Source: Turneriella sp.
GTDB lineage: Bacteria > Spirochaetota > Leptospiria > Turneriellales > Turneriellaceae
Direction: 5' to 3'
Assembly: GCA_965279515.1 (NCBI GenBank)
Contig: CBDIID010000003.1
Span: 928,001-992,000 of the forward strand
DNA: 64,000 nucleotides
Within the stretch, counting starts at the first letter, position 1, and each line of letters begins with the position of its first letter. Under the pieces are notes generated by a model. It had not been told where the DNA came from and ran no database searches. It was given only the letters and a program-made list of their open reading frames with translations. Made by a program: the position numbers and the translations under genes. This document shows, piece after piece, positions 28,146 to 30,454 of the stretch.

Positions 28146-28550
28146 CTACTCTTCGTCGTCGTCATCATCGTCATCGTCGGGCAGCTCATAGTCGTCATAG
28201 GCATAACCGTCTTCGCCGGGGTCTTCTTGCCCGACATACTGAATCGGAATGATCTTATCGAGCATGACGACGTCGAACGAACTCTTGAGTTCTGGGTTCG
28301 CATTGATGACATTCAGGCGCCCATCGGTGCGCACGAGAATACTCTGCAGTTCGACAAACTTGGCGATGAGCTCTGAATTTGCTGAGTTGAGCTTTGCGAG
28401 GTCAATCTCGAGCAAAAGATTGGGAATCTTCGCCATCTCGAGCTCGCTGACGACGCGGTCCAGGTGCCGGATCATGTTGATGAGACCGAGCTTATTGTCC
28501 TGATCTTCAATGAGGACGAGCCATTTACTTTCGCTTTTGTTTACCTGCAT
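28146..28550 (-). CDS. STAS-domain protein (anti-sigma antagonist-like) with acidic tail
   Basis: IDLAKLNSANSELIAKFV...GRLNVINANPELKSSFDVVMLDKII matches STAS layout; poly-Asp C-terminus. Confidence 0.75.
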   Translation of the reverse strand: MQVNKSESKWLVLIEDQDNKLGLINMIRHLDRVVSELEMAKIPNLLLEIDLAKLNSANSELIAKFVELQSILVRTDGRLNVINANPELKSSFDVVMLDKIIPIQYVGQEDPGEDGYAYDDYELPDDDDDDDDEE

Positions 28551-29118: not shown

Positions 29119-29610
29119 ATGAGCGAAGCCGTACACCCACCACGCAAACGGATTGCGCAGATCGGCTTCATCACGATCGGATTGCCGTTTGCGGCGTTTA
29201 AGATTCTCTTCGGCCTGACCATGCCGGCGCTCTGGCCGGGGCAGGCAGCCCAGATCGGCGGCGCGGGGCTTGTTATTCTCGGTGCTCTTGATCTCCTGGT
29301 CAACGCGCTTAACTCCACATTTATGCTGGTTCGCGGAAAAATTTTGACGCAGGTCTGCGTGTTCGCGATCCTCTTCGATTGGCTGGGAAAAAAGAGAGTG
29401 GAGGGCGATAAGGCAACAATCCGTTCCGCGGATTTCGGCACGGCGCTCGATGTCATGCTGTCCTTCACGCTGGTCGCGCTCTGTGTAGGGCTCAATCTCC
29501 TGGCGCGCTTTGGCGAAAGCGAACGGCTGCTGTGGAACCTCAGCGTCGTTGTCAACGTGCTCGGCGCAGGTGTCTCGCGCATCATGGTTTCTATTCTCAA
29601 GGCGGATTGA
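29119..29610 (+). CDS. Hypothetical membrane protein
   Basis: 4-5 hydrophobic helices; ends 1 nt before cobB start. Confidence 0.7.
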   Translation: MSEAVHPPRKRIAQIGFITIGLPFAAFKILFGLTMPALWPGQAAQIGGAGLVILGALDLLVNALNSTFMLVRGKILTQVCVFAILFDWLGKKRVEGDKATIRSADFGTALDVMLSFTLVALCVGLNLLARFGESERLLWNLSVVVNVLGAGVSRIMVSILKAD

Positions 29611-29611
29611 C

Positions 29612-30454
29612 ATGGCGGAAAAAACGGCGATCGAACGCGCGGCGGCGATTCTCAAAGCGGCGAAACATCCCCTCTTCCTGAGCGGCGCCGGTATCTCGGC
29701 CGAGAGCGGTATACCGACTTTTCGGGGCACAGGAGGTGCTCGAGCCGGCGGCGACAAGGATGTCGCAGCCGCCGGCCGCGGCGCCGAGGGGCTTTGGAAA
29801 AATTTTCGGGCCGAAGCGACACGAGGTCGCGAGTCGGACGCCGCCAGGATGGCGTCCTTGCGTCCCGAAGAGCTGGCGACGCCCGAAGCTTTTCGCCGCG
29901 ACCCGGCGCTCGTCTGGGAATGGTACAACTGGCGTAAGCGCCTGATCTCGGAAAAGCAGCCGAACCCGGCGCACCATGCGATTGTCACCATTCAGAAAAA
30001 ACTGCCGGAATTGCTTTCGGTAACGCAAAATGTCGACGGCTTTCACGCCCTCGCCGGTCTCGGTGAAATTCTCGAAATGCACGGCAATATTTTCCGCGCG
30101 CGGTGTACATCCTGCAAAGCGGTGCATGCGATGCGCGAAGATGTAGATCCCCACACCGCCTGCCCTGCCTGTATGGCGGCGGCGCTGCGCCCCGACATCG
30201 TCTGGTTCGGCGAGCAGCTGCCGTCAGCCATTCTCGACAAGATCTACGAACGGCTACGTATCGCCGATGTCATTCTCGTGGTCGGCACTTCAGGGCAGGT
30301 TTACCCGGCCGCAGGTTTTGCGGTCGAGGTCAGGCGCCGCGAAGGGCATGTGATCGAGATCAACATTGAAGAGGGCCACAAGGCGTATGCGAACGATATT
30401 TATATCCGCGGCAAGGCGGGAGATATTTTGCCACAGATTGCGGAGCTGGTTTAA
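29612..30454 (+). CDS. cobB: Sir2-family NAD-dependent deacylase (class III) with two 18-aa insertions
   Basis: GAGISAESGIPTFR, WYNWR (YxxR), TQNVDG, HG, CxxC/CxxC, PDIVWFGE, VGTSG. Confidence 0.95.
   Translation: MAEKTAIERAAAILKAAKHPLFLSGAGISAESGIPTFRGTGGARAGGDKDVAAAGRGAEGLWKNFRAEATRGRESDAARMASLRPEELATPEAFRRDPALVWEWYNWRKRLISEKQPNPAHHAIVTIQKKLPELLSVTQNVDGFHALAGLGEILEMHGNIFRARCTSCKAVHAMREDVDPHTACPACMAAALRPDIVWFGEQLPSAILDKIYERLRIADVILVVGTSGQVYPAAGFAVEVRRREGHVIEINIEEGHKAYANDIYIRGKAGDILPQIAELV
29725..29778. repeat. 54-nt in-frame double-hairpin insertion 1 in cobB
   Basis: Follows TTTTCG, ends CG; gcac-aggag-gtgc and gccggcg(gcgac-aaggat-gtcgc)agccgccggc. Confidence 0.8.
29809..29862. repeat. 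54-nt in-frame double-hairpin insertion 2 in cobB
   Basis: Follows TTTTCG, ends CG; gcgac-acgag-gtcgc and ggacgcc(gcc)-aggat-ggcgtcc. Confidence 0.8.

Follow-up and report, generated by a model that had tools for sequence, protein, structure and literature searches.

Two in-frame copies of a Turneriella two-hairpin repeat in the cofactor-binding loop of a CobB sirtuin gene

The window analysed here is a stretch of 64,000 nt from Turneriella sp. (assembly GCA_965279515.1, contig CBDIID010000003.1, positions 928,001 to 992,000), and positions without a contig label refer to it. Its cobB gene (29612..30454, plus strand) encodes a class III sirtuin, an NAD-dependent protein deacylase of 280 aa (ORF 29612–30451, followed by a stop codon), and carries two copies of a 54-nt two-hairpin repeat on the same strand: insert 1 (29725..29778), coding for GTGGARAGGDKDVAAAGR, and insert 2 (29809..29862), coding for AEATRGRESDAARMASLR. 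An earlier note, made from the sequence alone, had already placed the inserts there; the hexamer TTTTCG occupies 29719–29724 and 29803–29808 and is followed in each case by the 54 nt in question. The two have length, architecture and loop motifs in common, although their sequences are not identical. Both are in frame and free of stop codons within the SIR2 ORF, and comparison with insert-free orthologs, which read FRGxxGLWxNYRxEELATP, shows that each is exactly 18 codons long. The Pfam profile SIR2 matches the protein with 154 bits only from residue 81 onward (profile positions 22–180), because the inserts disrupt the N-terminal part. Likewise, chains of Sir2-Af1 in the PDB (E 1e-51) cover residues 14–42 and 83–277, leaving 36 extra residues in the loop, which agrees with the previous proposal that the inserts break the FRG..GLW..RPEELATP cofactor-binding loop of a class III sirtuin. 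The catalytic histidine and the four zinc-binding cysteines (H157, C165, C168, C184 and C187) are invariant across 20 orthologs. We consider it very likely that the inserts represent two independent in-frame insertions of a Turneriella-specific two-hairpin repeat, which are translated and are constrained in structure.

In insert 1, hairpin 1 (29725..29741, plus strand; GGGCAC-AGGAG-GTGCTC) has a 6-bp stem and the loop AGGAG, and hairpin 2 (29744..29776, plus strand; GCCGGCGGC-GAC-AAGGAT-GTC-GCA-GCCGCCGGC) consists of a 9-bp outer stem, a 3-bp inner stem, the loop AAGGAT and a 3-nt bulge on the 3' side. In insert 2, hairpin 1 (29816..29830, plus strand) reads GCGAC-ACGAG-GTCGC, and hairpin 2 (29836..29865, plus strand) reads GGACGC-CGCC-AGGAT-GGCG-TCCTT-GCGTCC, with the outer stem GGACGC/GCGTCC, the inner stem CGCC/GGCG, the loop AGGAT and the bulge TCCTT. 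These are the double hairpins and loops named in the earlier note, except that hairpin 2 of insert 2 ends at 29865, 3 nt past the end given there for the insert. The minimum free energy is -32 kcal/mol for insert 1 (z = -4.5) and -23.1 kcal/mol for insert 2 (z = -1.4), the latter being unexceptional on energy alone.

Both inserts are members of a repeat family that extends throughout the genus Turneriella and had previously been missed. A strict pattern, namely a hairpin with the loop A[GC]GAG followed within 45 nt by a hairpin with the loop AGGAT, has five occurrences in the genome of 4.9 Mb, the two cobB inserts among them, and the loops are 25–26 nt apart in all five. A looser structural scan gave about 30 clear copies, some of them in tandem with a period of 55–60 nt. 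From 23 copies a covariance model, R1, was built, comprising 54 positions and 17 base pairs. In the alignment of these copies GGATG is invariant in the second loop, the stems vary, and variation is greatest at the ends of the element; 89.7% of the 379 stem cells are paired, and 14 of the 17 pairs change on both sides. Insert 2 (29816–29866; 56.8 bits, E 3.7e-9) and insert 1 (29726–29777; 42.6 bits, E 7e-6) each match R1 over model positions 1–54 in a search of the whole genome, and are therefore members beyond chance. At least 82 matches with E≤1 are present in this genome, 150 of the 1804 candidates having been scored. At E≤1e-3 there are 64 matches in this genome (G000) and 17–60 per genome in all 13 other Turneriella genomes, as compared with 5 matches outside the genus, where 27 genomes of the same class were searched and 3 had matches, the remaining 24 having none. 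By genus, 3 matches lie in g4, whereas g2, g3, g5 and g6 have none.

The element is about 50–57 nt long and consists of a small hairpin with the loop A(N)GA(G/T), followed by a longer two-step hairpin with an outer stem, an inner stem of 3–4 bp, an A(N)GGAT loop and a 3' bulge of about 5 nt. Of 65 copies, 60 have a pyrimidine, usually C, at the position 4 nt upstream of hairpin 1, and 41 have C as the last base. One dispersed pair, the copy at C3:725510 and a copy in the TatD gene confined to G000, is 89% identical, compared with a family mean of 65%, which points to spread by copying. We found no published description of this element in the literature on Turneriella repeats, in-frame palindromic elements or transposable elements of the miniature inverted-repeat kind (MITEs) from Leptospira, and the accessible text of the T. 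parva genome paper does not mention such a repeat.

The distribution of the inserts among relatives is a mosaic. In 19 aligned CobB orthologs, both inserts occur in G003, insert 2 alone in G008 and G006, insert 1 alone in G012, and neither in 13, as would be expected of two independent insertions, which is what had been claimed. Insert 1 is lacking in 13 of the 19; G003 and G012 have it, and in G009, G002 and G001 it is shortened, the forms at site 1 of G009 and G002 having 15 and 11 extra residues, respectively; in the cobB of G001, which is outside the 19, site 1 holds a 5-residue remnant and site 2 is empty. These decayed remnants are all in frame although R1 no longer matches them. Insert 2 is present in G003, G008 and G006; 15 of the 19 aligned orthologs and the sister genome G001 lack it. 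The carriers have copy-specific stems and spacers in common, so that each cobB insert traces to one event.

A tree of four proteins recovered the sister pairs (G000,G001) and (G003,G008), each with 100/100 support. Since insert 2 is absent from G001, and insert 1 from G008, with base-exact precision despite carriers in the sister genomes, these absences are best read as precise deletions, which probably took place between the 6–10-nt direct repeats flanking the inserts. The repeat around insert 1 is CGGGGC on the left (29723–29728) and CGCGGC on the right (29777–29782), and that around insert 2 is CGGGCCGAAG (29807–29816) and CGTCCCGAAG (29861–29870), all on the plus strand. Their counterparts are perfect in two relatives: CAGAGGCG at insert 1 of G003 (8/8 identical) and CGCGCCGAAG at insert 2 of G006 (10/10 identical). 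The two repeat copies are 54 nt apart at both sites, and the boundaries of the inserts can be slid within them. Slippage between such repeats would regenerate an empty site; direct repeats of 5–10 nt may in this way permit base-exact loss and so give the presence/absence mosaic seen among species. Across the family, a flank-to-flank direct-repeat score of at least 9 was obtained for 20 of 72 copies and 19 of 712 controls, about 8 of the 20 lying in tandem arrays. The mosaic also offers a natural series for studying how far the cofactor-binding loop of a sirtuin tolerates insertion.

The idea that TTTTCG is the insertion target did not hold. Carriers elsewhere have TTCAGA or TTTAGA at site 1, and G006 has CACCGC at site 2. 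In the family as a whole the hexamer lies within 20 nt upstream of only 3 of 72 copies, two of which are those of cobB itself, while random windows have it in 1.6% of cases. Moreover, its distance to hairpin 1 differs between the two cobB inserts. The match at both sites is explained by the Phe-Arg codons present there.

Insertion into coding sequences is not limited to cobB. By a codon-usage test of the flanks, 20 of 72 copies lie between flanks that are coding in one frame, and 24 of 28 ORFs spanning a copy have Pfam families. In 11 of these ORFs (RibD_C, DUF2071, Guanylate_cyc, DUF2339, SMC_N, Pyr_redox_2, Oxidored_FMN, RNB, TatD, EPSP synthase and Ham1) the copy falls within the Pfam envelope, that in DUF2071 splitting the match in two, and at least 13 in-frame copies are inside Pfam domains when SIR2 of cobB is included. 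By breaking Pfam matches in this manner, the copies could mislead the annotation and alignment of Turneriella genomes. Other in-gene copies are situated in linkers or tails, for example in the C-terminal tail of ThiC, in a GDSL-MBOAT linker and, twice in tandem, in the tail of RNase P protein. The sense-strand copies use two reading frames or more and yield peptides rich in Gly, Ala, Ser, Thr, Asp and Arg, of the types ..RM[AS]SL.. and ..TDG[VI]...

Comparison with empty orthologs confirmed insertion in six genes (cobB, TatD, RNB, Pyr_redox_2, AroA and Ham1), and presence/absence polymorphism at orthologous sites was found at both cobB sites and in each of the other five. The copy in TatD (57 nt) is found only in G000 and is lacking in all 12 aligned relatives; that in RNB (54 nt) is likewise confined to G000 and lacking in 5 of 5 relatives; that in Pyr_redox_2 (60 nt) is shared by G000 and its sister G001 and is lacking in the four others. 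AroA has a copy in G000 and G008 and a different insert in the same loop in G012 and G010, and Ham1 has an antisense copy in G000 and G002.

Some of these loops show further variation. In the AroA loop, the insert of G012 (L189) and G010 (L195) is longer than and different from the element of G000 and G008, with a start resembling hairpin 1, and six other genomes have an extension of 8–10 residues relative to the shortest orthologs, those of G001 and G003; the length of this loop has changed repeatedly. A loop of Oxidored_FMN, an old-yellow-enzyme-type protein, contains element-derived sequence of varying length and position in G000 and in G001, G008 and G006 (L217–L219) and no element sequence in G003 and G002, which hints that one loop has undergone insertion, duplication or decay more than once. 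In the RNase P protein ORF (C3:3054294–3054409), where the Pfam match Ribonuclease_P ends at residue 142, residues 143–182 are two tandem in-frame copies of the element that are 96% identical.

Sequence comparison of shared inserts shows that the copies are maintained as nucleic-acid structures rather than as peptides. In seven comparisons covering four insert sites in three genes (both cobB inserts, Pyr_redox_2 and AroA), third-codon-position identity between insert-sharing pairs was 72–85% within the inserts and 42–53% in the rest of the gene, an excess with one-sided Fisher p values of 0.002–0.013 from tests that are not independent, as the genomes are kin. Amino-acid identity was 50–83% within the inserts as compared with 71–92% in the rest of the gene, being equal or lower in the insert. 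No unpaired cell occurs among the 60 stem cells of the four insert 2 orthologs, in which four pairs have changed on both sides, two in the outer stem (G:C to C:G and G:C to A:U) and two in the inner stem (U:A to C:G and C:G to A:U), with a fifth pair changed from G:C to G:U; 2 of 500 shuffles did as well. Full pairing together with compensatory changes indicates that it is the nucleic-acid structure that has been held. The structure may thus have some role as RNA or DNA, most likely protein binding at the GGA loops. Conservation as nucleic acid and not as peptide is unusual for supposed junk, and makes a function of the RNA or DNA testable.

Binding sites of CsrA are GGA motifs in hairpin loops, and a CsrA dimer can bridge a certain spacing. 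As an addition to the insertion history, we tentatively raise the possibility that the inserts have been kept as regulatory RNA modules, in which the two GGA-bearing loops of each element, about 25 nt from one another and so within the span that one dimer could bridge, could serve on the cobB mRNA as a landing place for CsrA or for a different RNA-binding protein. Consistent with this are i) the invariant GGAT of the hairpin-2 loop, present in all 23 seed copies, ii) the spacing of 25–26 nt between the paired loops, iii) the presence of a CsrA gene in the genome (PF02599, 81.9 bits), iv) the nucleotide-level constraint on the inserts and v) a bias of in-gene copies to the sense strand (23 of 31 copies in the scanned ORFs and cobB; binomial p 0.011). 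In addition, the reverse strand of three copies resembles the Rfam family Bacillaceae-1 at a sub-threshold 23.6–26.0 bits, and the reverse complement of that family is proposed by Gardner and Eldai as a CsrA binder (PMC4333381). Two-hairpin RNAs of the TwoAYGGAY family are proposed to be multi-copy, mobile-like sponges of the Csr/Rsm system (preprint 10.64898/2026.09.22.753630). The candidate CsrA-site pattern as described, GGA in a short hairpin loop (PMC4333381), is fitted by hairpin 2 in 23 of 23 copies and by hairpin 1 in part.

However, the loop of hairpin 1 is often ACGAG, which lacks GGA, the remaining 8 of the 31 in-gene copies are antisense, and a three-unit array at C3:4131225–4131388 is antisense to both neighbouring genes. 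This array was also considered as a conserved small RNA gene, which was rejected: no copy lies beside the orthologous gene in G001, G008, G006 or G002, the locus in G003 ending at a contig end. A scan around the array found neither promoter-like nor terminator-like sites (0 of each). That the element is a mobile docking module for CsrA, or another RNA-binding protein, and exerts post-transcriptional control over genes such as cobB seems doubtful. If it were so, the module, by copying itself, would reach untranslated regions as well as, in frame, coding sequences, and selection would act on an RNA structure and a peptide loop encoded by one and the same stretch of 54 bases, an overlapping code. 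The csrA gene itself (C3:3198123–3198278) is located about 4.6 kb from an element copy (C3:3202910–3202961), which lies at the 5' end of the FlgN ORF (residues 9–27 of the stop-to-stop frame).

The hairpins could instead be kept without function, either through template switching at quasi-palindromes, by which one arm is copied onto the other, or in a DNA role like that of repetitive extragenic palindromic (REP) sequences; nucleotide conservation would then be silent about RNA. Arm-to-arm correction, a mechanism known from the E. coli literature, would yield the double changes of insert 2. Both orientations of the element occur in genes and between genes, and the arrays are lineage-specific, as this explanation would allow. 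Arm correction preserves pairing, but it neither slows divergence nor conserves loops, spacers and bulges, whereas the four insert 2 orthologs show little or no difference in the spacer GAGTC and the loops, and third positions are conserved over the whole insert. We therefore regard this explanation as unlikely.

As to the fate of the inserts, the earlier note had left two possibilities, namely that they are tolerated as 36 extra residues or that they are removed or used at the RNA level, and the first is favoured: the frame is kept in all carriers and in the decayed remnants, and the loops are modelled with low confidence on an intact core. In the AlphaFold model of CobB (mean predicted local distance difference test score [pLDDT] 84.5, predicted template modelling score 0.83), the core blocks exceed a pLDDT of 90, residues 40–60 are below 50, and the 10-residue blocks 61–70 and 71–80 average 59 and 54. 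The inserts are thus most likely translated as disordered loops of 18 residues. Loss of the inserts at the RNA level, through excision as a mini-intron or through translational bypassing, would give a normal CobB and account for a conserved structure within a coding region, and removal would restore the canonical loop exactly. This is very improbable, as the insert length is a multiple of three with no stop codon in seven orthologous cobB copies and at least 11 domain copies in other genes, the remnants of G009, G002 and G001 remain in frame, antisense copies (Ham1 and DUF2071) are in frame too, and no Rfam intron or ribozyme family matched the cobB region or 20 copy loci.

There is a negligible chance that the inserts are an artefact of assembly, which the earlier note had wished to see excluded from raw reads, or that they stem from a local duplication in cobB. 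Contigs assembled by Logan from runs X1 and X4 cross 29400–30212 with no differences (those of runs X5 and X7 cover only parts outside the inserts); as these runs are probably the data of the assembly itself, the contigs represent a different assembler rather than independent DNA. Both types of insert are also present in the assemblies of four other species (G003, G008, G006 and G012), and the rest of the genome has about 64 further copies.

We return to the reading of the inserts as independent insertions of a mobile, structured and translated repeat. The element copies itself into genes and intergenic sites, and the in-gene copies seen add a multiple of three bases and no stop codons and are often situated inside domains. 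In cobB, the flexible cofactor-binding loop would have received two copies, 30 nt from each other, each to be translated as an 18-residue, probably disordered excursion that leaves the sirtuin core intact. Several points weigh against this reading. No transposase or other mobilising enzyme could be linked to the element, and conserved terminal inverted repeats are not visible in the 23-copy alignment. The flanking repeats vary in length (5–10 nt) and in register, and may be target duplications or microhomology, and the excess of direct repeats is owed in part to tandem arrays. The covariation among the seed copies is partly circular, the 23 seeds having come from the structure scan, and the relatives compared are kin and not independent. 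Finally, translation of the inserts is something that we infer.

Two candidate enzymes of movement were rejected. The sole Y1_Tnp gene (PF01797, C3:2616152–2616472) has no flanking copies, R1 scoring at most 9.5 bits in the 1.5 kb to each side of it, and although such a gene is found in 11 of 13 genomes of the genus it is also found in genera that lack the element. The sole reverse transcriptase match, RVT_1 (C3:1300966–1301448, 59.7 bits, in a 512-aa open frame), is more than 20 kb from any copy. Since the 3' arm of hairpin 2 at cobB site 2 is part of the native cobB sequence, it was also considered whether the 5' arm of hairpin 2 is templated by the target at each insertion; this was rejected because most of the 3' arm is missing from the empty RNB and TatD sites.

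A few other observations were made. At C3:2702361–2702499, a tRNA gene (57.8 bits with the Rfam tRNA model) is followed, 5 nt beyond its 3' end, by the start of an element copy. The structural scan matched identical sequence in contig C2 at 5272, 11898 and 18524 (a spacing of 6,626 nt) and in contig C1 at 10376 and 33858 (a spacing of 23,482 nt); these two small contigs look like head-to-tail concatemers of smaller units, perhaps circular replicons assembled more than once around. In the window, a 134-aa ORF on the minus strand (28146–28550) ends in an acidic run, DDDDDDDDEE.

Among small structured repeats, the element was compared with four kinds of known system. REP sequences and REPINs, with their REP-associated tyrosine transposases (RAYTs), and MITEs are likewise small, structured, non-coding interspersed repeats that are at times in tandem. 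In contrast to REP/RAYT systems, the Y1_Tnp gene here is without flanking copies; as regards the terminal inverted repeats and fixed-length target-site duplication of MITEs, no terminal inverted repeats are conserved here, the 23-copy alignment has variable ends and conserved interior loops, and direct repeats of 5–10 nt flank many copies with varying length and register. No parent insertion sequence has been identified for it, which sets it apart from both.

Searches of Rfam gave only noise in the cobB region at E≤10 (RsmW, 14.3 bits; IRES_Bag1, 11.6 bits), and at the 20 copy loci nothing reached the gathering score except an unrelated tRNA. Bacillaceae-1 (RF01690) resembles the reverse strand of the element in having an outer stem, a bulge, an inner stem with a UCCU-type loop and a second hairpin with a UCCU-type loop. 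It matched at 3 of the 20 loci, the best being 26.0 bits on the reverse strand of a non-cobB copy, below the gathering score of 35, and it did not match the cobB region at E≤10. Its reverse complement is described as having loops like CsrA sites, with the strand being uncertain (PMC4333381), and the accessible text of another study lists it as restricted to Bacillaceae and not a cis-regulatory RNA, and not as a dispersed repeat (PMC2864571). TwoAYGGAY (RF01731) of Pseudomonas likewise forms two hairpins, with loops of the AYGGAY type, and occurs in tens of copies per genome, with large differences in copy number; 1,693 of its 16,086 matches are reported to be inside coding sequences, and a mobile-element-like expansion has been proposed (preprint 10.64898/2026.09.22.753630). 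The Turneriella element differs in lacking a common basal stem, in its bulged, two-step hairpin 2 and in belonging to a different phylum, and it colonises protein domains in frame, which is not described for TwoAYGGAY in the accessible sources. Neither the 20 copy loci (E≤1) nor the cobB region (E≤10) matched RF01731.

The closest parallel in behaviour is provided by the Rickettsia palindromic elements (RPEs), which are also short and palindromic, have spread within one genus, have many in-frame copies in unrelated metabolic genes, and add a peptide segment to the protein without destroying it (PMC10969869). Repeated in-frame insertion into unrelated genes, as seen with RPEs, was found here in 11 ORFs in addition to cobB. 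By description, RPEs measure about 150 bp and form sequence families that each code for a conserved peptide (PMC10969869), whereas the Turneriella element measures about 54 nt, and its copies share structure and loops at 65% sequence identity and are read in at least two frames. The hosts differ as well, Rickettsia being an obligate intracellular alphaproteobacterium and Turneriella a spirochaete whose type species is free-living (PMC3746428). The two-hairpin repeat behaves like RPEs, but is much smaller, and its identity lies more in structure than in sequence. In-frame palindromic repeats invade enzyme genes outside Rickettsia as well, here in a genus of spirochaetes and with an element of only 18 codons.

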